A stretch of DNA of 63,758 nucleotides, the filler included, from Licmophora abbreviata (lineage: Eukaryota), in NCBI GenBank assembly GCA_900291995.1. It is 13 parts of 13 records of this genome, joined end to end, with 100 filler letters (N's around TTAATTAATTAA, not from the genome) between each part and the next. Parts side by side here need not be neighbours in the genome. Positions count along the whole stretch, not along the records: positions 37,350 to 46,126 come from OLMU01000726.1; 12 more parts are not named here. The stretch is one strand, 5' to 3'. Positions 5,333 through 61,696 of the stretch are shown here, one piece after another. The position numbers were made by a program, and so were the translations under genes. The first letter of the stretch is position 1, and the number at the start of each line of letters is the position of its first letter. The notes beneath the pieces are model-generated. The model did no database searches. It was not told where the DNA came from and saw only the letters and a program-made list of their open reading frames with translations.

Positions 5333-5709
5333 GGTGTCTGAAGGGTCAAAGCAGCGGGAACGCGCAACACAAAAGTGGTAAGAAACTTTGGAGCCGCACG
5401 ATGCTGTCTTGGCATCGAAACGTATCGCATTGTCAGGCCCGTCTTACCTTCTCGTGTGGTGGCCAACTGGCGATGTATGGGAGATATGGAAGCACATAGT
5501 ACGAGCAGCAAAGGAAGCCCTTTGCAATTGCTAGGAAAGATTTGTCGCACTGGACAGCGGGGCGAAACTCAGTTTGAAAAACTTCCCCGACCGTCCAGAA
5601 AGAAGTTTTNNNNNNNNNNNNNNNNNNNNNNNNNNNNNNNNNNNNNNNNNNNNTTAATTAATTAANNNNNNNNNNNNNNNNNNNNNNNNNNNNNNNNNNN
5701 NNNNNNNNN

Positions 5710-8700
5710 CAGAGCAAGTGATGTTGGAGTCGCAGTCGGCTCCGACAAATGACAGAATACCGGCCTTGTTGGCGCAGATTGAATCTGGCATTGCTCCGCT
5801 CAACTTGTTCAGCTCGACCTCAAAGGTGGCAAGTTTCTGCAAGTTACCAAGTTCGGCGGGTATTTCGCCTACCAACTCGTTACCGTACAGTAGAAGGAAC
5901 TCAAGATTCAGGAGGTTCCCCATGGAAGTAGGAATCTCCCCACTTAAACCACACTTGGAGAAGTCAATGTACTTAAGCGTAGTCTTTTCGCCGATAAACG
6001 AAGGAATTGCCCCTTTGAGTTGGCTGTTGGTGGTCAGAGAGATGTCTGTAATGTTGGTCATGTTCTCCATGAATTCCAGACCTCCTTTGAGGTATGCATC
6101 ATCAATATAGACAAACTGGAGCTCGGGAAGATTTCCGATTGAATCCGGTACTCGTGAGGTGAACTCATTCCATGAGAGGTCGATGTATGAAAGACTAGTC
6201 ATTTCAGCGAAGTCTGCCTCTACAAGAGGACCGTTCAAGATACAATACCCAATGATAAGCACAACAAGATTCTTGAGCTTCGCAATTGCCGGAGGAAGAC
6301 CTGGGTACTCGACGTAGTTGTTGAATAAATTGAGATACTCTGAAGAGAAAAAAAAGGAAAGAGCGTAGTTGAGTTTCAAGCGCCGTCTTTTCTATTGGAA
6401 ATACAAGGAAGAAAACATACCAAGATTCACCAGCCCTGAGATCCACTCTGTCCCTTCTTCCCCGTAGCTATCGAAAACGTTGCCTTCAAGGTCGAGTACC
6501 AACAGCGAAGACGCGAGCAGGCCGATTTCATTGGGGATGAACCCACTCAAGTTGTTGTCGTAGAGCTCGATACCAACGACTCGAGATTCCTCGTCGCACA
6601 CAACACCCATCCAGTCGCATTTATCAGGTCCATTATCCCCAACACCTAGCCATCCGCTTGTCTCGATCCAGGTTCCGGGCTCCTCAGACCAGTAGTTGGT
6701 GACATTGTTGGTGGAGAACCAGATGCAAGTCAAGGCGTAGTATTCAACAATATCCTGGTCGCTTGTGGTGTTACTCAAGCTTTGCATAGCCCATGTCAAG
6801 GCATCGAACTGATAGCTCAATGGATCGAGCAGCGCAGTAAAATTGTTCAGTGCCGCTCCAAAGATAACCTCTGCAACTTTGCCATCAGGAACAGGTATTG
6901 GTGATAGGGTGGGAGAAGACGCGGGTGCCGAAGTTGGCGACGGGGGTGCAGGGTCGGTGGGCATTTTTGTAGTTGGAGCAACCGATGGTGCTTCTGAGAA
7001 AAGAGCTGGAGTCGTCGGTGGGACTTTATTGTCCACTGGAGCCTGTGTGATCGGTGATGGAGTTTGCGGCGCTGCCGTTGGACTCGACGGGGCTTTCGAG
7101 ACGGGGGCCGGAGTTGAGGGCGGTAGCGTGATGTCGACGGGTGCTTGGGTGAATGGAGCTGGAGTTGACGGCGGTACCGTGATATCTACGGGTGCCTGCG
7201 TGGGCGTGACTGGAGCTGCTGTGACACCAGTGGGTGCTGTAGTGGGGGCCATCGAGGATGGTGGCTCGTCCGGAGGTGCGAATGAAGGCTCCTCCGAAGG
7301 CAACGCAACCGTGGGTATCGGAGACCTTGTTGGACCCCAAGATGGGCTTAACGTTGGAGTATCGGTCACAGGCGAGTCGCTCATGCTCGGAGGGATAAGC
7401 ACAGTATTAGCAATATGAATGACGCCATTGTTGACGAGAATGTCAGCACGAACGACAATGGAGTCGTTGAGCGTGATGGGGTCCACAGATGTAACTGTGA
7501 GCTCTTCGCCGCCCAACGTCGTTAGCGTAGCACCCATGGTGAGATCCGCGATCAAAGTAATCCCGGGGACTACGTGGTAGGCGAGCAATTCTGCCAGTAT
7601 CTCCTTGTTGGCAGAGTCCTTGAGAAACGCCAAAGCTTCGGCAGGGAGCTTGGCGAACGCGGCGTTGTTGGGGGCGAACACAGTAAAGGGGCCGTCGCCC
7701 TGGAGGGCCTCGACAAGATCAGCCCTTACAACCACATCGACGAGAGAAATCAAGTCGGGATCGGCGATCATAATATCAATAATGTCCTTTGTTGCTGAAG
7801 ACGGGAGCAGCAATTCACTCACTACGTGAACGACTCCATTTGAAGCGTCAAGATCCGCTTGAGTAACGTCGACACCGCTAATCTGGATAGGGTCAAGACT
7901 CGAGACAGTTATCGTCTCTCCGTTGAGAGATTCAGCCTTCATGTTCAGTTCGAGGTTGGCGGAGAATACCTTGGCGCCGATAACATGATACAAAAGAAGA
8001 TCGGTGAGATGGGCCTTCCACTGATCTTCGAGGAGCTTGGAAGGTACACTTTGGAAAGCCACATTGAGAGGGGCGAAAATCTGGCGGCGAGTTGTCAGGA
8101 ATACGGGGGTCAGTGCTGCGACGCTGAGCAAGGAAGACGCACACCACTCTCCGAGAGTCACTCTCCGAGAGTCACTCTCCGAGAGTCATCATTCACTTAC
8201 CGTAAAAGGACCTATGTCTTGGAGGGCCATATCGAGGTTGGTCGCACTAAGGGCTGTCTCAAGACTATCGAAGCGCTCATCTGCAGCAATAATGTCCATG
8301 ACACTTCCAATTTCAGGTGTTGGGTACAACGAGATGGGCACGCAATAGTCGACGTCAGGTGCCCCAGAGCCAGTGCACCCAGGCACAGCGTATCCGTTGT
8401 GGGGGGAGCACCGAAGTCCTTCTCCACAATCCTCGTCAAAGTCACAGTCACCTACAAACAGGTCAAGAATTGAGATTCAACATTCCACGAGGTTACAACG
8501 TTTCTATAAACAGTGCCTACTCACCTTCGCAGATACCGCATGGGTATGTCAGAGTACACTCGCCCACTTTGACTAGAGGATACTCTGGAGCAGGATCAGG
8601 AACAGTTGGGGCTGTTGGCGATGTCGGCGACGTCGGTGACGTAGGAGCTGTTGGGGAGGTAGGAGCCGACGGCGAAGTGGGAGCTGATGGTGAAGTTGGA

Positions 8701-9491
8701 AATGATGGCGAAAACGGAGCTGATGGGGAGGAAGGTGCCGTCGGGACACTAGGAGCCTGTCCCGACGGAGTCCACTCCGGCCAATCGAAGTCTAGGTCCG
8801 AAAGATCCAAGTCTGGGAAGAGGCACTGAAGTCCAAAACAATCTCCTCCCTTTCCTTTGCCTTTTCCTTTTCCTTTGCCCTTGCTGCTGCCCTTGCCCTT
8901 GCCTTTACCCTTGCTACTGCTACTTCCCTTGCCCTTGCTGCCCCCCTTACCCTTGCCTTTACCCTTGCTCTTGCCTAATTTTCTCGTGTTCTTGGCTTTT
9001 TGGTGGCTATCACTCCCGAAATGCTTACCGTGAGCACTGATGGAGGCAAGCGTTCTCTCTGAATTGTCATGTCTTGACTTCATGTGTCCATAAGAACCCA
9101 TGGTTGTCCTAGATTTTCGCGCAAGGGTCACAAGGTAGTCTCGAACGTTGCCCGCGATCGCGCCCCGAGTCCGTTCCCGCGTAGAATCCATCAATTCCTC
9201 CGTCACCTCTTCTCTCACCACCTCAACCACCTCTGTCCGGTCCGGAACGGCAGGTCTTTCCCTCTGCGGACGGTGATTTTCTCCTCGAGGCGATTGTCCC
9301 CTGTCTCGAACCGGACGGCGGCCTGCATCTCTTGCCCTATCGAGCACAGAAGAGACGGCGCTGTCCAGAGTGTCATACCAGCTAGCACCTCGGAGCCCTC
9401 CTCTTGTCTCAGCCACTACCACGCCCGAGCTGGAAAGGACACACAGTCCAATGAAAGCAAGATGCCTCAGCCAACAAAAACAATTCATCAT
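5710..9491 (-). CDS. Secreted modular cell-surface protein A: K/G/S-rich segment + frustulin-type ACR domain + 2 FAS1 (fasciclin) domains + P/T stalk + LRR domain (exons 9491-8525, 8451-8201, 8080-6421, 6339-gap)
   Basis: Signal peptide; GKGKGKGGSKGKGSSSSKG tract; spliced CGICEG|DCDFDEDC..C..VPGC.G..DYC; FAS1 motifs GPFT|IFAP, LLYHVI, ASNGVVHVV, GPFTVFAPNNAAF, NNGVIHI; LRR cap CDWMGVVC and plant-type LRRs; 3' end lost in a gap. Confidence 0.85.
8145..8188. repeat. Intronic tandem repeat (CACTCTCCGAGAGT)x3
   Basis: Three exact 14-bp units, each self-complementary (ACTCTC-C-GAGAGT), inside intron 8200-8081. Confidence 0.9.
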
Positions 9492-10237: not shown

Positions 10238-13090
10238 CTATGAAAAGCACCCAAGGCCACAGCAGTCGCAGCAATCGCACAGCACAGTGGTATCGCAATC
10301 GGTTCCGAGAAAAGCTATCTGGCCAGAATTTCGGTCTCACATATCCCATCCGGTATAACTCCGACAAAGTCGTTCAGTTCAAGTTCCAGGATTGTCAGTG
10401 CATCCAAGTTGGCAAGTGCAACGGGGATATTTCCTGTCAAGAAGTTGTCGTAAAGTACTAGCTCTGCAAGATTCGAGAGCAGTCCCACAGTCGTGGGAAT
10501 GGGTCCCTCCAAAGAGCAACCAGAGGCATCAAAGATCTCCAGATTTTGAAGGTCTCCAATGAAATCAGGAATCGACCCCGCCAGACCCAGGTTGAAGTTC
10601 ACTTGAAGATCTACGATACTTGTCATTTTCTCAATGAAATTGAGATTTCCTGAAATGGCAGCTTCGTCAGCGTAGAAGTACATCAAGTTGGGACGATTTC
10701 CGACTTCGAGAGGTATTTCTGAAGCGTACTCATTTAGTGAGATATCCAGATACTTCAAGTTTGGCATGCTTGCAAAGATCGCTCCATCAATGGGCCCACT
10801 AAAGATGTTGAAGCCCAGAATAAGAACCTCTGCATGGATTGAGATTAGAAGCATGTCATGTTAGATTCATCTGGAGCGGGGAGCGACTATGCATCGTCTG
10901 TTACGACCGATTAAAAGTACATACCGATATTGACAAGATCGACCAGAGAGGGTGGAAGCCCACCCGCATATTCGACGTAATTGTTGAAGATATTAAAATA
11001 TTCTGATGTTAGAAAGGTTTGGAGACCAATTTGTTAGAATCAAAAGTTCGAAAGTTAGCATTCCTCAATACCAGGTACTTACTGAGGTTGACCATCTTCC
11101 CGATCCAGTCTGTTCCCTCTTCGTTGTAATTGTCGAATTTGTTCTCTTCCAGATCAAGGGCANNNNNNNNNNNNNNNNNNNNNNNNNNNNNNNNNNNNNN
11201 NNNNNNTTAATTAATTAANNNNNNNNNNNNNNNNNNNNNNNNNNNNNNNNNNNNNNNNNNNNGCCATCTCGTCTGGAATAGCGCCGTGTAAGTTATTTGC
11301 ATGAAGGTCAATCGACTCGATTCGGTTGGTTTCAGTATTGCACCCGATACCGAGCCATCCACACTTCCCGGCCCCGGTTGCATCAAGCCAGCTGCTAGAG
11401 TCAAACCAAGGGTCCGGAGCCTCAAACCAGTAGTTATCAACTCCATTTGTCGCATAGAAAAGGCAGACAAGGGCGTAGTAGTCGATGATATCTTCCTTGC
11501 TTGTTGAAGCCGGAAGGTTCTGCTCCGCCCATGCCAAGGCAAGAGCTGGATAAGACGCAGTATCACCAAAGTCAGTGTTCGGAAAATCCGAGGAGGCGTC
11601 TATGATGACGGCTCTGACATCGTTTGAAGGAGGAGACTGACTGGTCGGGACTTTGGTTGGTGGAGTCGTAGGTGCAGGTGTGGACGAAGCAGCTGGGGCC
11701 AAAGTTGGCGGTGAGTTTGGAACCTGTGCAGGCGCAGCCGTAGCCGACTGAGGTGTTGGACCCGGAGTTGGTGCGGGGGTAGCTGCTGGAGCCAGAGTTG
11801 ACTGAGAAACTGGCGAAAGAGTTGGCGGCACCGTGACTGGAGCCGTTGTTGGTGCAGTCGTCGGGGAATACGTGTTTTCAATGTAGCAGTAGTCCTTTCC
11901 AGCAACTCCCGTACCAGAGCTTCAAGCGGCGACAACAAATGGTGTGAGGAATGAGCATGGAGTATACCACAACAAAAGCACGCTTTCTTCCTTACCACCC
12001 TGGGACTGCTTCAGTATCGAATCGCTCTTTGCAGACGAGGTTTCCCTCGCAGTCGTCGTCAGTGTCGCAATCACCTGTCAACATTGAACGACAGAATCAA
12101 GAATTAGAACTGATATCTCGAGGAAGGGAATCTCGTCTAGTTTGACCTCAATACCGGTATTGGAGGAGACTTACCTTCACAAACCGTACATTGCGCCCAG
12201 GGGAAGCAATCCCCGACCATAAACAAGGCCCCTGCGTTGACATCGGAACCATCAGTTGGAAATGGAGTCGGGTTGGGAGTTGGACTAGGAGTCGGGTTGG
12301 GCGCTTGCCACACTGTCGGTGAGGGCGGAGGCGGAGGAGGCGGTGGGGGAGGCGGAGGCGGTGGGGTGGGGGTGGCTGATCAGAGCTACAGCCACTGCCA
12401 CTGCTTCCTGTCTTCCCCTTTTTCCCCTTCGAGCTGCCCTTCGAACTTCCCTTCGAACTGCTACTACCGCATCCATCAAAGTCGAAGGAATCACTGGTGC
12501 TACTGCTGCTGCTGCTGCTAATACTGCGCCTTCCCATGCTCTGCTTTCCACCTTTTCTTGTCTTATGACGAGCCTCCTTGGCTTGCTTTGCTCTCTCCAA
12601 GAACTGCTNNNNNNNNNNNNNNNNNNNNNNNNNNNNNNNNNNNNNNNNNNNNTTAATTAATTAANNNNNNNNNNNNNNNNNNNNNNNNNNNNNNNNNNNN
12701 NNNNNNNNCTTCTCCAGACGCGGAAGACTTGCCGCGGCCTGTTGCTTCCTGCTCAGCGTCGGGACCCCCACCTATTCCTCTATTGGCGGTCAATGCCCCG
12801 AGCACCTGGCCCAAGAGCGAAGTGCGATGACCCCACTTGGCACCCGCCAGTTCTGCTTGAACACCTTTACGGTCGCGTCCGCCACCACCGCCGTTCTTCT
12901 TTCGTTTTCCCCCATCTCCACCCCCATTCCTAATTCGGTCCAAGAGCGACTTCTTCTCCTTTTTCTTCTTCTTCTTGAGATCTCGAAATGTGTTACCACG
13001 GAGCCTATCTGATACCGCCGATGCATAGGTCAGTGTCAGTATCAGCACCAGCGCCAAGGACAGCGAAACGATCAAAGGCTTGCGGACCAT
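10238..13090 (-). CDS. Secreted modular cell-surface protein B (paralog of A): poly-Lys and K/G/S segment + ACR domain + P/T stalk + LRR domain; two gaps and probable indel errors
   Basis: Signal peptide, RDLKKKKKK, SSSSKGSSKGSSKGKKGK; CTVCEG|DCDTDDDCEGNLVC..VPG..DYC; YYALVCLFYATNG..CGWLGIGC LRR cap; LRRs; C-terminal cap TDCDTTVLCDCCDCC reached after a 1-nt frameshift near 10335. Confidence 0.8.
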
Positions 13091-22754: not shown

Positions 22755-25700
22755 TTAGATTGCCAGTGAAACGATCTGTTTCGCAAGATCGATCGTGGCC
22801 GACATTTGACCTTTCTCAGCTGCGCTAAAGTTCATTTCACTCTGCTTACGTCCATCGTGATAAGAATCGACGTAGGCCGTGCAGAACGCGACCAAGCCAG
22901 CCGAAACCACCGCTTCATGACATTCTTTTCCTTGTCCCATCAGATTCAGTATCATGACTAGAACACGGTGCATGAGTTCCAGGTTTGCACTTTCTAGCAT
23001 TGTCATTGTCATTTCTTTGAAGGACTTCAAGTCAACCAAGGCCTTAGCAACGNNNNNNNNNNNNNNNNNNNNNNNNNNNNNNNNNNNNNNNNNNNNTTAA
23101 TTAATTAANNNNNNNNNNNNNNNNNNNNNNNNNNNNNNNNNNNNNNNNNNNNGCCAGACACCCCGCCGCGGCGCGTGCACATTCGAAATTGCTTTCGTAG
23201 TCGGATGCAAAAGCAAGCCACAGCCGCAACGTCTCAGGATCAGCCAAGTACTTCATCATCGCGGGATGCCCGACAAGATTCACCATCGCTTCAGTGCCTG
23301 CGCGTCGAACCATTTCGTGATCGGAGTACATGGCATAGCTCAACGTCGAAATGCCCTTCTCGGCGACGACGCGGTCCTTTGTCTCGTAATCAAGACTGGC
23401 AAGATTCGTTACAGCTAGCAGAGCCTCAAATTGTTGAAGATCAGATGCGTCATTGTCTCGAATCAACTCCATAAGAGGTTTTATGGATCCCAGCCTCTGA
23501 GATAATGTGAGGAGAGCAGGATTGGTGGAAACGAGGAGTTTCGCTACACAGTGGCGTGCCTGTTTCAGAATTTTCTTTCCGGTTTCGGATGGGTTATCCT
23601 GTAGACAAAGAGAGGGAAGAGGTCAGACCATGTCGAAGCAGCGCAAGCAGGCCGGGACACCGACCCTCTACTAGTTGATGATGCGGTGCTCACCCCTTTC
23701 TCGACCTTCAGACAGGCCGACAGTACTCCTTGCTGCACCATTACCCCCCTTACGGATTGCTCAATTGCCATTCGATTCATCCCCACGACGAGCTGCTCGG
23801 TCGTGGACTCTGTTGCGCCATCCATCAGTTTCACAAGAGCCCGAGGCACATTGACGGTTGCCATTTTTTTAATCCGTTCGTGCACGGCAGGCAGCGGGTC
23901 GTTGATCTCTTGCGGTTCAACATCTTTTTCCTCCTGTCTCTTTGAGAGGGCTTGTAGCTCATCGTACTGTTCCATGGTAATGTCCTTGCCTTCGAAAGCC
24001 TCTCGTCGCAACGTTTGCGAAGAGACAGCCATCAAGGAAAATATTGTTGCCAGACCGTACGCAGGCAGAGACGGACCAGCTTCTGGTAAAGAAGCCAGTT
24101 CGACGAGCCGTTCTAGGGCTGTTTTGGAATCAGATGCGTCGTGAAAGCCATGAGCGAGCTCTTCCTTGACTTGAGTCTTGGCGGCGAGATAGCTCAAGAC
24201 TTCCACACCGCGCTCGACGGCGGTCGTCGCATGAGACGCCGCCACAAGAAGAGACGGCGCCTCTTTCATTTTTTGGTCTGCTTCCGACGCATTTGTCTCG
24301 TCAAGCAGCTCGACTGCAACCTGCAGCAACCCCATGACTTCTCCGTCGTTGGCTGCTAGCATCTTATCGGCCAGCCCCAGTTTTGCAACTGCCGACGCTG
24401 CACCCGAACGAGTATCGCGATCCTCACTCGAAAGTAGAAGAGTCAATGGCAATCTTGAGATAAAGCCCCTCACTTTCTCAACTGAAGCGCCGGCCGAGAT
24501 CACCTCAGAGGCAATAGACATTGCGACCACGTCGTCCGACTCGATCAGTTCATCGAGGACACCATCTGCTTCCGTCAATCCCCAACTACCCACTTCTGGA
24601 ACACCCAACATAAGTGACGACAGGAGCTGCCCCTGTTTCATGCTGTCCTCCAGTCGCCGTCGTTCGTCTCGCTTTTCATCATAATCAGTGTGCACTTCTT
24701 CGATAGCGGGTCGGTTATCTTTCAGGGTTGGTTTGACAACATTCTTGACTTGATCCTCATCGAGGCAGTTCAGGACGCGTCCCAAGACCATTCCCATTTC
24801 ACGCCGTAGCCCGTGAGACTCACATTGGATCGCAGCTGCTAACCAGATCTGTAAAATGTGTGGCTGAGATATTGCCAAAGCTCGCTCTTTGGACCACCAC
24901 TTAAGCTGCTCTTGACGTTCATATTGGTGTTTCCTGTATGCGGCCACTTCTCGAGGTTTCATGGAACGCAATTCTTCTTCTGTTTTGACTGTCTTTCGTT
25001 TGTTTGTCTGTTCAAAAGCACTATTGGTTTCTTCAGGATGTGTCCACGTGGACACAATCTCTATAGACGCCTGAATTAACCGTGGATCACCTGATACCAG
25101 CGCCGCTGAGCACGTCCGCACAACGCATGATGTTTCCACCAAAGTAGGACGAGAAGTTGAAGTCTCATCATCATCTTCCTCGTGTCTATCCATATGTTGA
25201 ATCAGGCGCAGCCAGAGCGATAGTAAGGCCATTCGCGCATGGTAGGTCTCCTCTTCATCGTCTGACTCAGCTTCTTTCATTCGATCCACCATCTCCGACT
25301 GTGAAATTACCGTTTTCGAGAGCTCTGCAACAAACGCCCCGTGCTGACAAGCCGCCGACAGACACTGCAACGCCAGAGCTGGACAACGTGATTCTTTCCA
25401 GAGAAANNNNNNNNNNNNNNNNNNNNNNNNNNNNNNNNNNNNNNNNNNNNTTAATTAATTAANNNNNNNNNNNNNNNNNNNNNNNNNNNNNNNNNNNNNN
25501 NNNNNNGTATAATATCCATCGATGCCGATGCAGGATCGTTTGTCACCAGTCCCAAGAGGACCTTGTAGCGATGTCTTCGATTGTCCGCATCTATAGTGGT
25601 GTCCATCAATTGTTGCAATGTCCTTCGAACCGGAGTATTCTGCACGTTGCTGTGACTATGGTTGGCGCGAATTGCGTTCAATAGGGTAACTGCCTGCTTG

Positions 25701-28723: not shown

Positions 28724-28911
28724 GTAGGCGAATCCTCCTTACAAAAGGAGNNNNNNNNNNNNNNNNNNNNNNNNNNNNNNNNNNNNNNNNNNNNTTAATT
28801 AATTAANNNNNNNNNNNNNNNNNNNNNNNNNNNNNNNNNNNNNNNNNNNNATCAAAAATAACAGAGCACTTATTAACTAGAAAGACCAATGGGCATTCAC
28901 GCCCCAATAAA

Positions 28912-31900
28912 CTAACGCGACCATCGCGACAAGGACCCGACACGCCTCTGGAAGGAGGAACGACTCTGCGTAGACCTGACGGAATCACCGTCCGTCCAGT
29001 GCGAAGACGTATCATCATCGATATTAACTCCTGTCATGCTTTGCAGATCTGAGACCTTCGTGTGGAGTTCTTTCAGAGATTCCTGGAGAGCTCGCATTTC
29101 GTTCTGCAGCAAGAGACTTCGCTTAGCTATTTTGCAATTCTCCTCTCGATCTCGCAAAGTCAAACGCTTCGTTGAATGTACCGACTTCCTTGCTGAGTCA
29201 AGGCCCTCCTCTTGATCAGCAGGAACAAGAGCAAGGAAATACCGCCTGGGCCTCGTGATTGACTCTCGACGCTTCTCATTCATACTTTCAAGGTAGGCGA
29301 CAATGAGCCTTGGAAATAAGTACGATGATGTCGGTAAGTTGAACCCAAATTTTGTACTTCAAAGACACACTCGATCATCACTTACGATGCACGGTAGAAA
29401 GACCTTTGGACACGTCGGGAATGCCTTATGCTCGCACACAAGTCGCCTGTATAGCACGTGACTTGCAGTAATGCTGCCAGAGCAAGGGAAGCAAAGGTGA
29501 TTCCCGTAGGCCCTAGAATCAAATGGGCTAGGGAGTGTTCCGCGAACGATGCGTCCACCTGCTGCGTGGGGCCCGTTGCCAACTGAGAAACGACCATGAG
29601 CCAAAGCAGGATTGTGCCGCACACGAGCGCAAGGCCCCCCACTTCCATGGAGTTCTAGTAGCGGAACAAAAGGAGTTCTACGGCTAAGACCTCGACCAAA
29701 ACGGCAACCCCTCATACACCACAAAGTTCTTACCTGAAAGAAGAGACCGATCAGCCGATTGGCACTCTATGGCGATGGGAGTGAAGGGCTCGTTTAGTTC
29801 GTGCAAGCCATGGCAAAGGTGCATTCTAGTGAGTACGACATATGCCTTACCTCTAATCCCCGCAGATAGACGAGCAGTTTGGCTGCCACAAAAAGGCTGG
29901 TGGAGGTTGCGAGAAAGGGGACCAAGTCAGGTCGCCAAACGAGCAAAAAGAGAGTCAAATTGACCAAAAGAAACAGGCAAATATTGACTGCGTGCCAGAA
30001 CCAGAATACTGTCTTCTGGCTGGGCTCAAGGGTGAGACCTTCCCGTTTCATCCTTAGAGGATTCAACAAGGCGTTCTGAGTGATCGGCGTTATGCTTTCC
30101 TTCGGTTGTTTTAAGAGTCGAAGGTCTCTCAGCGTTTGAAGAAAGTTGAGAATACAAGTGACCCCGAGTAACAATGCCGAGCGATTGTTGGCTGCTGGTT
30201 CATGAACCCTCTNNNNNNNNNNNNNNNNNNNNNNNNNNNNNNNNNNNNNNNNNNNNTTAATTAATTAANNNNNNNNNNNNNNNNNNNNNNNNNNNNNNNN
30301 NNNNNNNNNNNNTGCTGGTTCATGAACCCTCTCAGAAGTTTGAAAAGTACCGGCCTGCTTAGTTCGTGCGTAAGCAACATTGTGAGGTCCAACGGTCAAA
30401 CTCGCTTCAGATTATGGTCGTCATGTGTTCCCCCGAACATACCTGAGTCACGAGGCTTCCAAAAAAGTAACAGAAACTCAAATATAGAAGAAAATCAACC
30501 AGAAACATCCATACAATTTCCTCTTCCCAGACTTCATCCAAGACGGCAGCCATTTCCTCTGTCACCAACACGGTAGGACTGCACCTGCGTATCAAAGCAG
30601 CCAGGAAACGCGCGGAAGATACGCCAGGGAGAGGCACTACCGTCATGCGGGCCGGGACACCCTTGCTGTGCACATCCTCGCAATTGAACGCTTCACCGGC
30701 CAAGGGTAACTCACTTGTAAGACAGAGAGGCTTCCCAACTGCAGTCTTCCATCCTTCATAGCTGCTGCAGCTTGTTAATGGCCAAAGCGTCATACCATGC
30801 ATCGCGTCAACAACGACTACGAAAATTGTACAGACGAAGATTAGGATATGATACAAGACGTGACACAACAATACTAATCGTAGACAAGTCAATACAGAAG
30901 ACATCGTACCTTCCGGCGCAAACTCAGAAGCTGAAATCAACGCATCAGTGAGATTTCCACTTCTCATTTCAAAATTCATCATAAGATATGGATGCTTCCG
31001 ACAGTGTACAAGAGCGGTAGATAGCACAATGCCGAGAAGACGGTGGTTCTGCCTTTTCACTACGATGTTGAAAAGACTTCCAGATGCTGGATCAAACGCA
31101 AAGACTGCCTTTGGAAACGAAAAGAAAATTTCTTTCAAACAATTGATAGTCAGATCTTCCGGTCGGGCCATTGACATCATTGACGAGCCAAGGGCTAAGT
31201 GAACCTTTTCTTCTCTGGTTCCCGTATAGATCGACTGAATAGTAGATTCCAGTGGTGTGCGTGTCTTGTCGTCGGTTCGATGATATAGGAGTTGGGAGCG
31301 TTCCACAGGGTGCAACTTTCTTAGCTTGGCACACAGAGTTGACCCACTAGTGACTTCCCCAGCTGTCCACGAGAACCACTGAGGGCGAAGAAGCTCTCCC
31401 ACGCGAAGAACAACCACTGCTCCTCCATTCATCTTCCGAAATGGAAAGTGCGTCTCACCACCGATAGAAAGGAGCGTACCGGAGCGATCAAAAGCCAGGC
31501 TTGTCATTGCACAATTTGGATCACAAGGAATCTGTTGGACCAGCTCGAAACTGCGAGTGCTGAAGACACTGCAGAGTGCCGATCCATACACTGCAGCAAG
31601 ATACGGAGACGTTAAATTCGGGGAGAACTGGACAGCAGCAATGCTACCTGGGCAGCTGATTGCACGATCAATTACCCTGCAGTAATAAGAACGCTGTCTT
31701 ATGAGGTCGCTGATGAGATGACATAACCTGCACCAGCGTGTACATACCATTTTCGCCCACGCAGTTCTGCAATGTAAATCAAACCTGTGTTTACACCAAT
31801 AGCCAGCTGGGTAGCTTTAGGGGAGAAGCTGATCGACTCTATTTTTCCTTGATCAACTTGGATGAAATTGGTTTCTGATATCCGTTCACCGTCGTAGAAT

Positions 31901-34790: not shown

Positions 34791-37700
34791 ATGTCAGGTG
34801 CAGGTGATACTATGACAATGGAGGGATCTTCCAGCGCACAGAGTGTAGAGAGCGGCCCAGAGGGTGACGTGACTGCTGCCGTGGCGACCAGTACTGATCC
34901 TACGGAACGGCCGGGTGCGAACCAGCCAGTCGAGCCCATGATAGTGAAAACGGCGTCGGGGCTCTCGAACGATGCGGAGGCGCCAGTGATGAAGCGTGCC
35001 AATTCGGCCCCTACATCGCTGGAGGACTCGGACAGCCACCCCTTGCCGCCGCAGGCGAACGCAGAGGGAGGGCTGAAGCTATTGACAGTAAAGGAGAGAA
35101 CGATCTCCTTGTCGTCTGTCGCGTTGACTCAACATGCAGCTGGTGCCCCAATACCACCAGCGGCCCCAAATCAACAAGATTTTGACGAGTTCATCAACAG
35201 TCCGCGAGGACAAAATGTCATAGTTGAACGATCCCCTGGAGGACGTTATGTTCGTTTCATGGAGAAGCTAGGTAGCGGCGCAACCAAGGACGTGTACCGA
35301 GCGTACGACACGACAGAGGGCATCGAGGTGGCGTGGAACGTTGTTAACCTGGCTGGTGTCCCCAAGGCGGAGCGAAATCGTATTGTCAACGAAGTGAGGC
35401 TACTGGAAAGACTGCACCATCACAATATTATCAGTTTTCACGGCTCGTGGGTGAATCGCGAGAAGCAAGAGGTGAATTTTGTTACAGAAATCTTGTCCTC
35501 GGGGACTCTAAAGAATTTCATTAACAAGGTGCAGGTCATTCGATGGAAAATTGCAAAGCGATGGGCGACTCAGATTTTGAACGGTCTGGCATACTTGCAT
35601 TCGCAGGATCCACCTGTTATTCATCGCGATCTCAAGTGCGACAACATTTTCATTAATGGCACGAGCGGTGACCTGCGGATCGGCGATCTTGGTCTTAGCA
35701 CCGTACACCGACACGGGAAGGTTCTAAGCGTGCTGGGTACTCCCGAGTTCATGGCTCCGGACCTGTACGAGGAAGCGGCCTACGACGAGAAGGTTGACAT
35801 TTACGCATTTGGAATGTGTCTATTGGAGATCTTTACGAAGGAGATTCCGTACAAGGAGTGCAACAATCCTGCTCAAATCTACAAGAAGGTTATGGGAGGC
35901 ATTCCTCCCAGAAGCCTTGGTCGTCTTCGGAGTGAGGAAGCTCGAGATTTTATACTTTTATGTCTCGGCCAGAAAAATGAAGAGACAAATACATACGTCC
36001 GTCCAAGTGCGAGCGAACTGCTCAAACACCCGTTTCTTGCGAAGGGAGTTGACGATGATTCCGAGGTAGAGGTTGATCCCCCCCTTCAAGAGCGAGTCAT
36101 TACGGAAGAGCCAACAAGCGGAGTTCGGTCTGGAGGAGACCAAACGAGTGACCTGGGATCCACAGGCAGTGTCGAATCTGTTTCCGCCGTTGCCTCGCCT
36201 CACGCAGCTGCGCTGGCGCGCAAACAATCAAGGTACTCGCACAGCGAGTTCAGTGTCGATGAGGCAGACCAGTTCGAAGAAATGCCTGATAGCGAAGTGA
36301 ATATCCGAAAGGTGAAAGTGATGATGGGTCGTGGCCACGAGCTGGAAGAAGAGGATAACATGTCCACTTTGCAAGACACCGTACGAAGCCTGGATTCTAC
36401 CGGGATACCACTTCAGGAGTCGATGCGGAGTGTCGATTCGTTGACGTCAACCGAGCAGGTGGCGACGTCGCAGATGATAGCTATATCCGCCCCGGTTGGA
36501 GATGCGACCGAAGGAAGAAGCGACGACAGTCGTGGAAGCCAGACTCCACCGGACCAGCAATCCAAATTCTGTGTAGCAGCAGCGGTGATACAGGACGAGT
36601 CACCGCATGTCCGCCCTTACGACGATGACATACTGAAGCTTATCATTCGACTGCCAGTGGATGGCCAGACGCAGAATGTACAATTTGATTTCCATTTAGT
36701 TGAGGACGATCCCGTGCAGGTTGCAAAGGAAATGGTTGCGGAGCTTGGCATCCAAAAGGACGCGGTACTTGACATTAGCGAGACGGTCAGTGGCCTTGCG
36801 AGAAACGCGAGAATGAAACAGGAAAAGCACGTGCAGAGACAAAAATGGCAGCAAGAGCAGATGCATGCGCAACAGCAACAACAGTCGGGCACCCTGATGA
36901 ATCAGCAACCTCAACAGCCTCAGCAACAGTTTTCTCAGCCTGTCAACCCCGGAATGCAGCAGCAGATGGACCCGGTAGCGCAGCAACCGCCGCCACCACC
37001 CGTGCAGCAGCAGCAGCAGCAGCAACAACAGCCGGCTGCTTCGATTAGTCAGCATCAGATGCAGCAGCATCAGTTTGCTCAACCCGGAAATCCGGGAATT
37101 CAGCAGACTATGCAAGGAATGCAGCAGGCGCAGGCGGGACAACAGCAACTTCCCATATCGCACCCTCTTAGTCACAGCCTTCCCTCAAACGAAGCCATTC
37201 AGCAACAGCAACAGCATCAACCGGCCAGAATGGTGCAGCACGCTCCGCANNNNNNNNNNNNNNNNNNNNNNNNNNNNNNNNNNNNNNNNNNNNTTAATTA
37301 ATTAANNNNNNNNNNNNNNNNNNNNNNNNNNNNNNNNNNNNNNNNNNNNCTCAGCCCTCAGCATCCCAGCCTGCGAGCCAAGGAATGCCACCCGCTGGAT
37401 TTGCGCAAGGACAGCAGCCACAGATGCAACAGGTGGGACAAGGACAGCAGCCTCCCGCCGTCGCAACTGCACAACCGCGACCACAACAGCAGACGGAGAG
37501 TGGACCACAACAACAGTCGATACAGCCTACGAACCACGGTCACGGCCCCATGCACGCGATTCATCCAAACCAGGGTCAAGTTCAGCTCCAGCCCCCGCAC
37601 GCGGAGTCCAACGGCGACAGAAGTCGTCAAATACAGGGACCGATGCAGTATCCAGCGCCTTTGACATCTCAACAGCAGTATCAGGGGACATCTCTAGGAG

Positions 37701-44231: not shown

Positions 44232-45093
44232 AAAATGGTGCCACGATACGAGCGATGCTTTTTAGACCGTGTGTCGTGGATTGGTTCGAATTTGATTGTT
44301 TCCCCTTTGGTAACAAAAAAGTCAGTGTCCGTGGCACCCTTTCGCTGGATTCAATGAATCACTTCTGTCTAGGCAGGTAGGAAGGTGCTCCGTTGCGACT
44401 CCTGCTTCTCCATTGCGACAACGCCAATGCAGACGTGTGACGTTGAGAGGAGTTTGCAGAGAAAGAGAGATGCTCGTCCAGTCGTTTTTTGGCGAGACTC
44501 GACTCCTTGGCGCTTACCAAGGCATGGCAGTCCGTATGTCCAACCTATTCAAATGGAAGTCCGACAAACGGAAATCATGAGAGACGCGGGGGAGTGCATC
44601 CGCGAACAGGTCTACCTACTTATATTTACCTACGTGACTTAAGGACGAAATAGTCCGAAAAATTAGTAATCTCAACGGAAACGGTTTCCGTTGACAGCGT
44701 TGCTTCGAAAGTCGTTTCCCGCCCCACTGCGACTGCGAGCGTATGCACCCTGTACTCGACTATACTGAACTCCTACTAGAGGTAAGTGCCATAATAGCTA
44801 GAGCGAAGAACGACGACAGTACGTCGATTTTATTCTTTGGCACATAACTTCGGCATGTGGTCCTCTTTGCTCAGCCAATGAAACCTGGAAAGGAGCCACC
44901 AGGCGTTTGAGTCGTTCAACTCTGTCACAATCCCAGTTACCCGTGAAGCGGAAGACCTTTTCAACACTAGTACTACTGTAGCTAGAAATAGTTCTACCAG
45001 ATGAAAGAATAGGATCTCAGCTTTTTCTCTAGAAAAGGCGGGGGTATGCCGATGATGCAGATACGCGCTAGATGGGCGAAATCCGGTGCGCGC

Positions 45094-45267
45094 TGTTGGG
45101 AGATGTCTTTTTATCAATTCTAGGCGAAGAAAGCCTCTTGGGATCGATGACTCTCGCTGCAAAGGCGCAGCTCTCTCAAGCTCACTTCTATCGAATAATC
45201 TAGTAGACAACAGTGATTTAGTGTAAGGCTACATCCGATCATCCTAGTGTTTGAATCACTTCCAACA
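45094..45267 (+). repeat. 5' LTR (174 bp)
   Basis: Begins TGTTGGGAG, ends CTTCCAACA; last ~35 nt match 47394-47429. Confidence 0.85.
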
Positions 45268-45484
45268 TTATTCGATAGAAGCCCTCGGGAGCCCTATCGG
45301 AACATAGGAACGAGGTGGCCTTGATACAGGAACATCATCGCCAGAGTCATCGTGCGGTCATTCTCAACGGACGAGAATCACGCCCAACGATACATCACAT
45401 CGCGCCTCATCACATCACGACTTCGATAGCAACATCGACATCGTGAGACAAGTGAACAGCGCACACAAGCAACCCTCTAACACC

Positions 45485-47293
45485 ATGAGTGGTAGAGGCG
45501 GACGCGGCCGAGGTGGCCGTAGCAGCGGTCGAGGACGTGGCCGCGGGAGGAACTACACGAGCCCGAGGAAGACCGCGAAGAAAGGACTTTGCGAAGCACT
45601 CGTAGCCAACGTGTTTGATTATGGACAGAAGGCGTCCGCAGACCTCATGCGGACTACATGGGAGAAACTGGTACAATATGTCGGTACCAACTATGGAACA
45701 GAGATCAATGAGGAGTTGAAGACGAAGACGCGAGTAACGATCCCGGCGCCAGCATACAGCGAAGCAATCATGGCACGCCATACAGCCAGGGAAGCAATGG
45801 TTCGAGCAGGTCAGAACAACATCCAGGCGGTCCGCAGGGCAAAGCTTGTAAGGCTACAAGCGGTAGACCCGAGTGTTGACCCGGATGCTGACATCAAAGT
45901 GGCAAACCTCATGAACGAGATTGCCGAGACGGACTATGAGATGCAACAGGACATCCCCATCAAGCTGACGGAAAGCGAGAAGTCAGAACGGGACAGCGAG
46001 CTCCGCACGTATCGTGAACTACAGAACCAGCTGAAGAAGCAGCGTGTTCAAGTGTTCAACCTCATGCACGGACAGTGCACTCAGTTGCTCCAGGACAAGA
46101 TGAAGCAGGATCTTGACTGGCACACCNNNNNNNNNNNNNNNNNNNNNNNNNNNNNNNNNNNNNNNNNNNNTTAATTAATTAANNNNNNNNNNNNNNNNNN
46201 NNNNNNNNNNNNNNNNNNNNNNNNNNCAAGAAGAGCGGTAACCGGAGCGGAAAAAGCGGAGGCAGCAAGGACTTCGACAAGAGCTACTGGAAAGACAAGG
46301 AGTGCTACAAGTGCGGCCAAAAGGGCCACCCAGCCTCCAGCTGCACCAAGGAAGACGATGATACGAAATCAGTCAATAGCAAGTCCGACAGTATCAAGAA
46401 ACTATCAAAAGACATGAAGAGCATCAAGAAGAAATTCTCGACGGTGAACGCACAGCTGAAGCAGGTGCGAGAGAACGACTCAGACCTATCGGACTCAGAA
46501 GACGAAAGCGATGAGATTTCCCATTTCCAAGTTGGGGAATACCAGACGAGCTTCCAGTTTACGCAATTGGAACACCACTTTGAGCCAAAGATCGAGGATC
46601 TATTCAATCAGTCGTCGCAGAAGAGCAAGTCGCGTGAATTGGATCTCAAGGAGATCATTCTTCTCGACAGCCAATCAACGATGGACTTGATTTGCAACCC
46701 TAAGCTCGTCGAGAAGATATACAAAGCTGAAGGAAACATGCAGCTAAGAAGCAACGGCGGATCGATGCTAGTGACCAAGAAGGCCAGGATTACGGGGTAC
46801 GACGCCGAGGTGTGGTTCAGTAAGCGTGCGATCACTAACATTATCGCCCTCAAGAACATCACGCGTCAGTACCGAGTCACCTACGACAGTGACGATGGGA
46901 TGTTCATCGTGCACAGAGAGTCCGACGGGAAGCCGAATATGCAATTCAGGATGCATAGCAGCGGTCTCCACTACTTCGACCCCAGAGATGACAGCTTCAC
47001 GTTCGTCAATACCGTTAGCGAGAATAAAAAGAACTTCACCAAGCGACAGATTCAAAATGCAGAAGTAGCAAGGAGTCTGTACGCGAAGCTCAGTTACCCA
47101 TCAATGAAGGATTTCAAGTGGGTCATACGAAGCAATCAGATCAAGGACTGTCCAGTCACAGTCAAAGATATCGACGTCGCCACGAAGATCTACGGAAAGG
47201 ATATCGCGGCGCTCAAAGGAAAGACCACCAGACGCAAACCCATGCCGGTGGCAAAGGACACTGTGAAGATTCCCAAGGAGTTCATGAAGCTCC
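45485..47293 (+). CDS. Gag-Pol polyprotein, partial
   Basis: RGG-rich N-terminus, CYKCGQKGHPASSC zinc knuckle, ILLDSQST protease, ARSLYAKLSYPS..IKDCPVT..ALKGKTTR region typical of diatom copia elements. Confidence 0.85.
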
Positions 47294-47393
47294 NNNNNNN
47301 NNNNNNNNNNNNNNNNNNNNNNNNNNNNNNNNNNNNNTTAATTAATTAANNNNNNNNNNNNNNNNNNNNNNNNNNNNNNNNNNNNNNNNNNNN

Positions 47394-47429
47394 ATCCGAT
47401 CATCCTAGTGTTTGAGCTCACTTCCAACA
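47394..47429 (+). repeat. 3' LTR end (rest lost in gap)
   Basis: atccgatcatcctagtgtttgagctcacttccaaca followed by the TSD. Confidence 0.85.
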
Positions 47430-47587
47430 CGCGCGTCGGCTGGGCATGAGACTTCACTCACCCCACAGGGCATCGATCATCCCAACAGATCGTGCCCTAT
47501 CGCACCGGGTTACCAGTAACAAGTGGTCAACAAAAAATAAAATGGAACATGTATCTTATCCGCTTAGTACAGCCTACTAGTAGTCCT

Positions 47588-49741
47588 CTAAGGGGCAAAG
47601 TTCTTGACTTCATCCCAATTGAATCCATAGGCATAGCGTTCTCCATCTTCCTCGTAGAAGACGGCCAGAAAGTCCATCCCAGCATCGTAGACGCCCGCTG
47701 GAAGACCACCCTGATTAGCTTGGCGAAGGCTCTTCATCTCCCGTGCAGCATACTTACGCATCTTGCGCATGCCACGGTTGCTAATCGGGCGCTTCTTTGG
47801 CTTGTTGGCAACCTTTTCCAGACGAGACGACGAGCCAAGGCGGCGCATCCTATTCCCGGCCTCCGGGCAATACGAGGCCTTGCAGGTGCCAAGCATACTG
47901 GGCGTAAACGTCTCAGCCTGGCTGTAGTCAACCTCGTATCCCAAGTCTGCCAATCCTCCGATGGTTATGTTTGAGAAGATGCTGTTCGACGATAAATACC
48001 CCGTCATCACCTCTTGTCCCAAGCACCTGTAATACCAGGTATCGATCCGCTACATGTTTAGTTTCGACCATACGAGTAGGCAGTATATTTCGCACTTGCT
48101 TGCGGCAAACGACTTACTGATCATCCCAATGACCTCCCGCAGTACCAGACCCACCATCCGTTTCCACTGGAAGTCGTCCTGAACAACCCATGATATTCCA
48201 GTTCGTCTGAGCCATGGTATTCTGCGCATAGAACTCGCCGCCGTTGTACAAACCAATCGAGTTCCACCAAGTGCCGATCCCAATCACTACAACAGGTCGA
48301 TCCAAGAGACGACGAGATAAGTACGAGTATCAACAAAGATGAACCACGTTGCAAGGACGACTTACCATGGCCGAGCTCATGCACAATTGTCGACGTCCAT
48401 TGTTCGTCGCGTCCCGTTGAGAGGAAGTAGTCAATATCGGCGGTATCGAAACGCATCTGACCAACAATGGTCATTGGCTTTCCATTTCGGGTGCGATAGA
48501 ACCTAGGTCCCGCCGAACCCAGGATACCGAACCGTCCGTCAATTGGCTCCGCCAAGCCACAGACCACCATGTCATCAAAGCTTGCCGGGACGGCCCCACA
48601 CCGGGTGGAACCAGAGAAACCGCTCTGATCGGGTTGGTCCCCAGTAATCACCAATTCCCATTTGTCCTTGGCTACATCAAAGGCATCCATCCATTCCTTC
48701 CTGCCACTGGAGCGTGTATCCACGAGGTCGAGACATAGGTTGAACTTGTTGTCGTAGGTGAAGCATGAAGGCTGTAACCCACTTGTGACTGAGCGCATTG
48801 ATAGAACAAGTACGTTAGACATCCGATAGATCGCGACTCGGAACAGATGCACACTGGTAGGAACATACCTCCAGTTGGAGCGGGAGCAGGAGTCGGAGGA
48901 GCGGGAACCAGCTTTCCTCCACCACAGGTACAGCAAGCCATATTGGCAGTGATCCCATTCCTTGCAAAGCCATCGCCATACTGGGCGCAACGATTGCCTT
49001 GCGAGTACCAGGCACAGTCGTACACCGAGCCTGTGATCGACGGGGACAAACAATGTAGCAAACCATCTTTTGAGTTTTGGAGAGAAGTCATGGTACGAAC
49101 AGTTTACAGTACAATAGACTCACCATCTCTGTCAAACCAGCCTTCAGGATCATCTACACAAATCAAGTCGGTACCGGTAGTTGGGACCGGCGCAGGAGTC
49201 GGAGCCGGGGTCGGCGAAGGCGTCGGAGCTGGCGTCGGCAAAGGAGTTGGAGCTGGAGTAGGCGCTGGCGTCGGCGAAGGAGTTGGAGCTGGGGTGGGGG
49301 CAGGAGTCATAGGGTCAGGCCCAGACACCNNNNNNNNNNNNNNNNNNNNNNNNNNNNNNNNNNNNNNNNNNNNTTAATTAATTAANNNNNNNNNNNNNNN
49401 NNNNNNNNNNNNNNNNNNNNNNNNNNNNNGTCGAGTCCGCCCCCGCAGACGCAGCACGCCATGTTTGCCGTGACGCCATTGCGGGGGAAGAAGTCTCCGA
49501 ACCAGTTACAGCGATTGTCCGGTGAACTCGCGAACCAAGCACAGTCGTAGAAGGAGTCTTGCGGGGAAAGGGAAAGGCGACATTGAATGAGGTCTTCTGT
49601 TCATAACACCACATGTTGCGACACTTTCCCTCCAACACACTTACTAATATTCATACGCCAACCAACCGGGTTGTCCACACAATCCGCCGTGGCCGTGGAG
49701 GCAAGGGATAGAAGTGCGACGGGGAGCAGGAGAAGTTTCAT
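47588..49741 (-). CDS. Secreted leishmanolysin/GP63-like (peptidase M8-type) metalloprotease with Cys-rich CCxCGGG modules and PTPA linkers; multi-exon, one gap
   Basis: Signal [70 protein letters not shown]. Confidence 0.8.
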
Positions 49742-50791
49742 GTTTGATTGGAAATTTCGAAAATCTTACACAAGGATTTAACTTGTGAGTGATGCGCACC
49801 TCAGCCGCTTCACCAAAATTGTGAGTTTGTGAGTATGTCAATGGAGTATCAATGGACATTATCGCCAGCGGTCTAAGCGTATCATACTGACTAGAGAATC
49901 AAACGTAGAAATTCGGGAATCCAATGGTTATCGGATGGCGCAACTCCGTATGGAGTGTCGACCGGCTACTCCGACGTTGTCACTCCGAGGACATGCCATC
50001 AACTCAATCGTCTATCAATGTTGACGATGATCTCATTTCGAAATCATCAAGATTTTTGGCGTGGAGTTGACCGTTCCATAGTTTTCAATGACAACTCCTC
50101 ATGACACCATGCGGCACATCTTCAACCATCTGGTGGACGTCTACTCCGCCGACAAACAGCAAGAACATTGCGAGGCCCGACGAGCTGTACAAACACACGC
50201 AGAACTCGACCTTCCTCAGGGCCTGTACCCAAAACCAACACTTCGAATGCGTCCTTCCGTGATCAGATCTCCGATTTTATACGCCGATTCTACATTCGAA
50301 CGGGCCTGACCTCACTCATTGTTGATTTGGCAATAAGGCAGAAAAAGACAGCGTGTTTGACATGTTTACCTGATGGTATGTACCTCGCGCGAGAACGTGG
50401 AGCCATCTTGCATCTTGCGTTTGGTTTGATGAGAGGAGCGGGCGGCGAACAGACTGACGGTTGCGGTTCGGAGTCAAATGAGTCGAATGAATCAATCGAG
50501 TCGAATGAATCCTTCAAGCTGGATAGCGCTAACCTCGGAACTTGCTCAAACTCTCTCGCGATCAACACAAACTCATTCAGGATTCAGGCCTTATCAGCAT
50601 CAGTGCCTGCACAATGAAACAGAAGCCTTGCCGGGAGCCCTCTACTAGAGCCCTCTACTACAGCAGTTTGTTGAGAAAGCACAAGGAGCTACCACGCGCC
50701 GAAGCCCTCTTCATGCTTGGTCGGAATTTGGTGGTGGTGAAAAGCTCTTCTTGAAACCAACCACATCCAACGATTGGTATAGCAGAACATC

Positions 50792-61493: not shown

Positions 61494-61696
61494 NNNNNNN
61501 NNNNNNNNNNNNNNNNNNNNNNNNNNNNNNNNNNNNNTTAATTAATTAANNNNNNNNNNNNNNNNNNNNNNNNNNNNNNNNNNNNNNNNNNNNAAAGTAC
61601 TGTTTCTACGCTCATCGATGTTCATCTCGACGCACGCGTCGTCACAAGCGGGTGTTGGGTTTCGCAGCTTCGAGCTCTTGCTTTCCGATTGGAACC

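Follow-up and report, generated by a model that had tools for sequence, protein, structure and literature searches.

To our knowledge, self-priming of reverse transcription has been demonstrated experimentally for Tf1-type gypsy elements alone, with a primer of 11 nt in Tf1 as against arms of 15–17 nt in the elements described here. Tf1/Tf2 and Tf1/sushi elements resemble ours in having no tRNA site and in possessing an LTR that ends in CA beside the primer-binding site (PBS) (PMC10085805, PMC5445492). They differ in that Tf1/sushi elements are Ty3/gypsy chromoviruses, whereas relatives of the present element carry an RVT_2 domain with a predicted integrase fold before it; in that the helix of most present members, unlike that of Tf1/Tf2, overlaps the last base of the LTR; and in that Tf1 needs two flanking duplexes, the ‘pretzel’ (PMC10085805), of which none was detected in the present hairpins.

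Within Ty1/copia, Neumann et al. (2019) predicted self-priming for the plant TAR lineage and cited an earlier proposal for Houba and Osr-1 (PMC6317226). The initial annotation of our locus had taken self-priming to be unknown in Ty1/copia; this is not so, and the TAR prediction makes that belief outdated. As described there, TAR elements are, like ours, copia elements with a 5′ LTR region complementary to at least 10 bp of a site that lies 0–5 bp after the LTR, but their hosts are land plants and the prediction was drawn from blastn matches (PMC6317226). We set the present clade beside TAR by description; the likeness may reflect either common descent or convergence.

Two further copia groups invite comparison. 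The fungal element GalEa likewise has no classical tRNA site and a conserved structure at the PBS position, but as reported its site is a short conserved palindrome without a complement in the LTR, whereas the present site is variable and LTR-matched (PMC5445492). The CoDi elements of Maumus et al. (2009) are copia-like elements of diatoms with short TG..CA LTRs, from 153 bp; the present element is likened to them by description alone (PMC2806351), and the main text of the CoDi paper makes no mention of primer sites. No description of self-priming in diatom elements was found in the literature that we searched, a search with most subscription journals outside its scope.

Anatomy of the element and its inverted repeat

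The window, by which we mean the whole 63.7-kb stretch of DNA analysed (Licmophora abbreviata, GCA_900291995.1), is interrupted by twelve identical spacers, each made of 44 N, TTAATTAATTAA and 44 N, and the linker TTAATTAATTAA has stop codons in all six frames. Because the spacers are identical and share this linker, the window is to be read as a chain of contigs in which the order and adjacency of the pieces are not assured. Within it, an LTR retrotransposon spans 45089–47434, target duplications included (Table 1). Its TG..CA LTRs and 5-bp target duplication are as in Ty1/copia (Pseudoviridae), and tblastn with a full-length relative found the gag and polyprotein pieces as the sole matches in the window.

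Table 1. Parts of the retrotransposon, and the spacers that divide the window
Feature	Position	Strand	Basis or remark
Target-site duplication, left copy, CGCGC	45089–45093	+	Identical to 47430–47434
5′ LTR, 174 bp, TGTTGG...CCAACA	45094–45267	+	Ends match LTR termini of relatives
U3, promoter part of the LTR (putative)	45094–45183	+	Taken as all sequence 5′ of the conserved CA at the arm start
Initiator-like TCACT, predicted start A45184 or C45185	45182–45186	+	Conserved CA position
5′ arm, predicted self-primer CTTCTATCGAATAAT	45185–45199	+	Perfect complement of 45267–45281; covaries in relatives
Loop, remainder of R plus U5, 67 nt	45200–45266	+	Conserved blocks CTAGTAGACAACAG at start and CCTAGTGTTTGAA near end
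3′ arm ATTATTCGATAGAAG, putative primer-binding site	45267–45281	+	First base is the terminal A of the LTR; no TGG
Untranslated leader	45282–45484	+	Relatives share no conserved block right after the arm
gag ORF, N-terminal 214 codons	45485–46126	+	Enters scaffold gap; tblastn 56% identity to P0010 residues 35–226
Polyprotein piece: CCHC knuckle, protease region LLDSQST, region before integrase core	46228–47292	+	60% identity, P0010 residues 396–742
3′ LTR, last 36 nt	47394–47429	+	Remainder in gap 47294–47393; ends CCAACA, then flank, no PBS
Target-site duplication, right copy, CGCGC	47430–47434	+	Directly after visible end of 3′ LTR
Spacers 1–6	5610–5709, 11163–11262, 12609–12708, 23053–23152, 25407–25506, 28751–28850		
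Spacers 7–12	30213–30312, 37250–37349, 46127–46226, 47294–47393, 49330–49429, 61494–61593		

Most of pol, RT included, is hidden in the gaps 46127–46226 and 47294–47393. The 36-nt tail of the 3′ LTR differs from the 5′ LTR's terminus by one indel and a substitution, which could reflect either LTR divergence or pieces from different copies. Where the two are laid side by side (45250–45267 and 47410–47429), the 3′ LTR tail has GAGCTCAC and the 5′ LTR has GAATCAC at the same place. With pol sequence lying in gaps and a 3′ LTR tail unlike the 5′ LTR, the copy in the window may not be intact, and this was weighed against self-priming.

Pieces of a host ORF adjoin the insertion on the minus strand at 47540–49760. 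The ORF at 47588–48022 gave a sub-threshold match to leishmanolysin (Peptidase_M8; E 3e-4, 19.9 bits against a cut-off of 21), and the host gene at 47540–49760 looks split by introns and a gap.

Direct reading of the sequence confirmed that the 5′ LTR ends in CA at 45267 and that the sequence right after it, TTATTCGATAGAAG, is without TGG. The initial annotation was also right in its central observation, an exact reverse complement of 15 nt between 45267–45281 (ATTATTCGATAGAAG) and 45185–45199 (CTTCTATCGAATAAT) across a loop of 67 nt, and in the TCA that it had seen ahead of the arm, which we found at 45182–45184. The helix stops at both sides, A45184/C45282 and C45200/C45266 being unpaired, and is the sole perfect inverted repeat of at least 13 nt with a loop of 20–300 nt in the whole window. 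Dinucleotide shuffling of the 600 nt ahead of gag, repeated 2000 times, produced an arm of 14 nt once and none longer; when the 3′ arm was fixed at the LTR end and the LTR shuffled 5000 times, the maximum was 12 nt. Both RNAfold structures, MFE and centroid, contain the helix (−29.4 kcal/mol, z −2.57). The window helix far exceeds what is expected by chance.

Two finer details of the annotated fold fared less well. The nested stem drawn between 45212–45221 and 45251–45260 has only seven contiguous pairs (45212–45218 with 45254–45260), RNAfold favours another inner pairing, and RNAalifold found no conserved inner helix in the relatives. The motif CTATCG is indeed present at 45294–45299, but the competing pairing proposed for it is at chance level: downstream of the site, matches to an element's own arm were no longer than matches to the arms of other elements.

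Related elements and covariation of the helix

Public metagenomes and genomes contain 241 longer homologues of the polyprotein piece, many of them ~1750 aa in length and carrying RVT_2. This domain was detected in 15 of 17 aligned relatives, at positions ~1200–1470 of ~1750 aa, and the aligned consensus runs in the order gag, CCHC, LLDSQST, a D..D..E region, FHVDD (RT) and an RNase H-like end. Neither rve nor any protease family gave a Pfam match in the window piece or the relatives. As no integrase had been matched in Pfam, a structure model was made of family residues 731–1010; its mean pLDDT was 52, with values of 60–87 over the first 100 residues, and it aligned to retroviral integrase cores with TM scores of 0.57–0.66 (target-normalised), 158 matches having E ≤0.001. 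Weak SH3_retrovirus matches were seen upstream of the RT in relatives. The model supports an integrase fold for the region upstream of RVT_2 in the relatives, and an integrase fold in that place makes their domain order copia-type, gag–PR–IN–RT–RH, rather than gypsy-type. The gypsy trait on which membership of Tf1/sushi would turn, an integrase after the RT and RNase H, is absent in the relatives. Judged via these relatives, the assignment of the window element to the Ty1/copia type, as first annotated, is supported.

The Atlas clusters nearest to the polyprotein piece and to a neighbouring ORF are both Bacillariophyta, and these two leads are the basis on which we tentatively label the lineage ‘diatom’. 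Among the viral contigs searched there was no relative, and a sequence search of the PDB returned zinc-knuckle matches alone (best E = 0.09). Five relatives (L079–L083) lie in MAGs labelled Alteromonadaceae, Planktophila, Gammaproteobacteria, Pirellulaceae and Puniceicoccaceae; retroelement contigs in these prokaryote MAGs most likely reflect contamination of the bins by algal DNA.

A scan of metagenome contigs gave 78 loci encoding relatives, many of them collapsed or circularly permuted assemblies of a single element, and k-mer-sized terminal overlaps were common among the related contigs. Searching the element strand of these loci for perfect inverted repeats of at least 12 nt with a loop of 20–260 nt turned up this one LTR/leader architecture 37 times, across 35 loci; the other hits were CTG/CAG simple repeats in L062 alone. 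The helix of L021 joins once its contig is circularised. Hairpins were in this way chosen as perfect repeats, and a search that allowed one mismatch, covering just the loci without a perfect repeat, found L028 alone, whose helix has one C–A mismatch. The remaining loci are mostly short pol fragments without an LTR/leader junction.

Viewed from the gene instead, a helix was found within 900 nt for 29 of the 35 gag starts that had 450 nt or more of sequence ahead of them, a count that includes the window and takes circularised contigs twice. The six misses were L009 twice, with the helix further upstream, L028 with its single mismatch, L014, L033 and L053. A recognisable LTR was not found in L033 or L053. 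In L014 there is an LTR end with a PBS-like sequence, but its LTR holds no partner for the latter; the locus may be an assembly chimaera or an inactive recombinant. At 1113–1142 of that locus, the LTR end CCAACA is followed by PBS-like CGAACTGCAAAATTAT, the complement of which occurs nowhere in the locus.

Contigs from prokaryote-labelled genomes added the five further loci L079–L083. L082, on a contig of 321 kb, has a pair of LTRs that are 98% identical; here and in L005 each LTR contains the 5′ arm, and the complementary site follows the 5′ LTR alone. The full copy in L082 is flanked by GGCAT and by TGTGC, with no evident duplication of a 5-bp target. About 1.2 kb downstream of it, at 8700–9060, lies an inverted partial copy comprising LTR, PBS and leader.

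Together, the window, 36 hairpins from metagenome loci and one from a MAG contig (L082) make 38 distinct LTR/leader hairpins. All have perfect Watson–Crick arms, of 15 nt in 20 hairpins, 16 nt in 17 and 17 nt in one, closing loops of 61–205 nt. The arms themselves are highly variable, with 35 different sequences among the 38 hairpins and a mean pairwise difference of 8 of 15 positions. Their placement varies little: in 30 of 38 hairpins the final A of ..CAACA is the first base of the 3′ arm, in 6 the arm begins right after ..CAACA, and 2 are placed otherwise. When 26 hairpins were folded, the full outer helix was in the MFE structure of 25, and L006 missed just the closing A–U pair.

For the covariation analysis we used an alignment of 16 hairpins (A3) with a 15-bp core. 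Core pairs were Watson–Crick in 240 of 240 cells, with double-sided changes at 13 of the 15 pairs (52 cells); one-sided changes and G:U pairs were both at zero in this core. The covariation score was 0.633 as against 0.145 in shuffles, none of 500 of which reached it, and sliding the partner by 1–3 columns left 37–54% of cells able to pair. RNAalifold, run independently, returned the outer helix as the only consensus structure. Close pairs (L013 and L029, and the two copies of L009) differ by compensated single changes. Across the 35 arm sequences, LTR and PBS stay complementary while their letters change, and this covariation strongly supports the core of the annotated reading, a copia-type element in which the primer-binding position is paired with the LTR of the element itself rather than with a tRNA.

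Two blocks are conserved while the arms vary, one right after the 5′ arm (45200–45213, CTAGTAGACAACAG) and one near the U5 end (45241–45253, CCTAGTGTTTGAA); in alignment A3, the block directly after the primer begins CTAGTAGAC. Such blocks might serve as a signal for cleavage or recognition, as a poly(A) signal or as a site where the integrase binds the ends, and the position of the block after the arm hints at a part in the release of the primer by RNase H.

A further constant is the sequence at the start of the 5′ arm. CA stands there in 37 of 37 hairpins, usually inside CTCA, and a TCAHW motif overlaps the arm start in 28 of the 37. U3, by comparison, cannot be aligned among relatives and measures ~90–245 nt where a conserved motif marks the LTR start. 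TCAH(+1)W has been proposed as an Inr-like motif of diatoms, and is reported to be present in 68% of 80-nt flanks (PMC4686930). The TCACT of the window fits this motif; with the motif so frequent, a single match says little, and it is the fixed position relative to the arm that carries weight. From that position, we infer that the RNA starts at the conserved CA (A45184/C45185). Contig ends were considered as evidence for the start and rejected: the start of L005 falls 3 nt into the arm, but the 81-nt overlap of this locus resembles an assembler k-mer artefact. No poly(A) was found at the ends of the loci.

Proposed self-priming and its alternatives

The best reading of these data is a Tf1-like self-priming, without a host tRNA, by a copia-type element, and we give it a probability of about 80%. 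The element RNA, with its predicted start at the conserved CA, would fold its first 15–16 nt back over the 67-nt R–U5 loop to pair with 45267–45281. Cleavage by an RNase H-type activity at the 3′ limit of this paired 5′ segment would expose a 3′-OH at the edge of U5, which reverse transcriptase would extend through U5 and R before transfer to the 3′ R. Synthesis of the plus strand would then copy the primer back into the PBS. The start, the cleavage, pairing in cis or in trans and the copy-back are all steps that we infer.

Where tRNAs serve as primers, plus-strand synthesis copies the primer sequence anew into the binding site. Copy-back of a self-primer would likewise carry changes in the LTR segment to the binding site, so that the pair stays Watson–Crick while its sequence drifts; the finding of no G:U pairs and no one-sided changes is what would be expected if the binding site were rewritten in this way. 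A strongly conserved, purine-rich CCACAGGAGTG stands directly before the LTR start TGTTGG in L001, L004, L006, L007, L009, L011 and others, and is probably the polypurine tract, or plus-strand primer, of the family; its counterpart in the window lies in a gap. As far as the sequence indicates, plus-strand priming looks conventional.

Several points speak against self-priming. As the helix contains the last A of the LTR in 30 of the 38 hairpins, the end of the primer would lie one base inside the LTR, and this overlap calls for an extra assumption, either a cut one base earlier or the retention of one ribonucleotide. We also looked for flanking duplexes of the Tf1 type, by a crude test with fixed windows. 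Pairing of the post-primer segment was no better than in shuffles, either with the U5 end (mean z +0.51) or with the post-PBS segment (+0.33; n = 35), and the structure appears to be a single helix. Also weighed against self-priming were L014, in which the PBS-like sequence lacks an LTR partner, L033 and L053, in which an LTR was not recognised, and the selection of hairpins as perfect repeats.

The alternative that survives best is that the helix is a conserved leader structure, with a role in packaging, dimerisation or translation control, and that priming happens otherwise. Covariation establishes pairing and not priming, the flanking duplexes of Tf1 were not found, and GalEa is described as a copia element with no classical PBS and a conserved hairpin of unknown role (PMC5445492). 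Such a structure would nevertheless have to coincide with the place where priming is needed: in 36 of 38 hairpins the 3′ arm begins within one base of the LTR end, which is where the minus strand must start if the LTR is to be regenerated, and no other conserved candidate site follows the LTR. An arm length held at 15–17 nt and a start at the conserved CA also speak for a primer, and the complete lack of G:U pairs and one-sided changes fits primer copying better than selection on an RNA fold. We therefore regard a leader structure without a priming role as unlikely.

Self-priming, as the preferred reading, further requires that the site is not one for a host RNA. Counting from where the 3′ arm starts, the first 8 nt are free of TGG in all 38 hairpins, and the sequence of the binding site is unconserved among relatives; to judge by these sequences, a tRNA-type primer site is absent. 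A host primer would fix the sequence of its site, and since this site differs in nearly every relative, the primer is very probably not a tRNA. The scan against tRNAs that the initial annotation had envisaged was run for L082, where the PBS region has a longest exact complement of 7 nt among 73 distinct tRNAs of its own assembly (a MAG, the tRNAs of which may not all be those of the element's host) and one of 16 nt in its own LTR. The 15-nt core of L082 occurs five times, with at most one mismatch, in its own 6.9-Mb assembly, on one contig and always in LTR or PBS copies of the element. There were no tRNA genes in the window or in ten long related loci, and a search of 44900–45600 with Rfam gave no match at or above the gathering score.

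The assembly that holds L082 (G001, 6.9 Mb) has 91 tRNA matches, among them two dense arrays, each with dozens of genes in ~5 kb (contigs C24, ~10.0–14.3 kb; C32, ~10.7–15.6 kb), which is unusual for its Pirellulaceae label.

Much less probable than a leader structure is that a host tRNA, a tRNA half or another small RNA primes at 45267–45281 and that the match to the LTR is secondary. Priming by half-tRNAs is on record for copia lineages (PMC6317226), and the tRNA comparison was made in the assembly of L082 rather than in the host of the window. Such a primer would, however, have to account for 35 different sites among 38 relatives, all without TGG and all complementary to the LTR of the same element; the assembly tRNAs of L082 reach no more than 7 nt, the primer sequence was seen there in the element alone, and Rfam offered no candidate in the window.

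A chance match or an assembly artefact can be dismissed, for although the window is a gapped draft scaffold and many related contigs are collapsed or circularly permuted with k-mer-sized overlaps, the shuffle controls never reach 15 nt and the same architecture recurs in 38 independent junctions from many assemblies, including a two-LTR contig of 321 kb.

Reach and meaning of the proposed self-priming in the clade

These comparisons place the element, with unusually good support, among the self-primed LTR retrotransposons, in the copia superfamily and outside the Tf1/sushi clade. A broader proposal, for which we judge the odds to be about even, is that a widespread copia clade, found in diatoms and aquatic metagenomes and reaching down to ~41–50% polyprotein identity, swapped tRNA priming for a private self-primer of 15–17 nt. 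This primer would be kept perfect by copy-back in every cycle while free to drift, would act through a one-helix structure and would have arisen independently of Tf1/sushi and possibly of TAR.

If this is true, each sublineage would have a primer ‘address’ of its own and would be immune to host small RNAs aimed at tRNA-type sites. The 35 different perfect pairs of primer and site amount to an unusually clean natural experiment, in which the zero count of G:U pairs points to templated copy-back as the maintaining force, and the mechanism could be tested directly in a transformable diatom. For annotation, such elements will be missed or misjudged by LTR finders in which a tRNA site is obligatory. 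More widely, the finding bears on how frequently tRNA priming has been lost and on a possible escape from small-RNA defences directed against tRNA primer sites.
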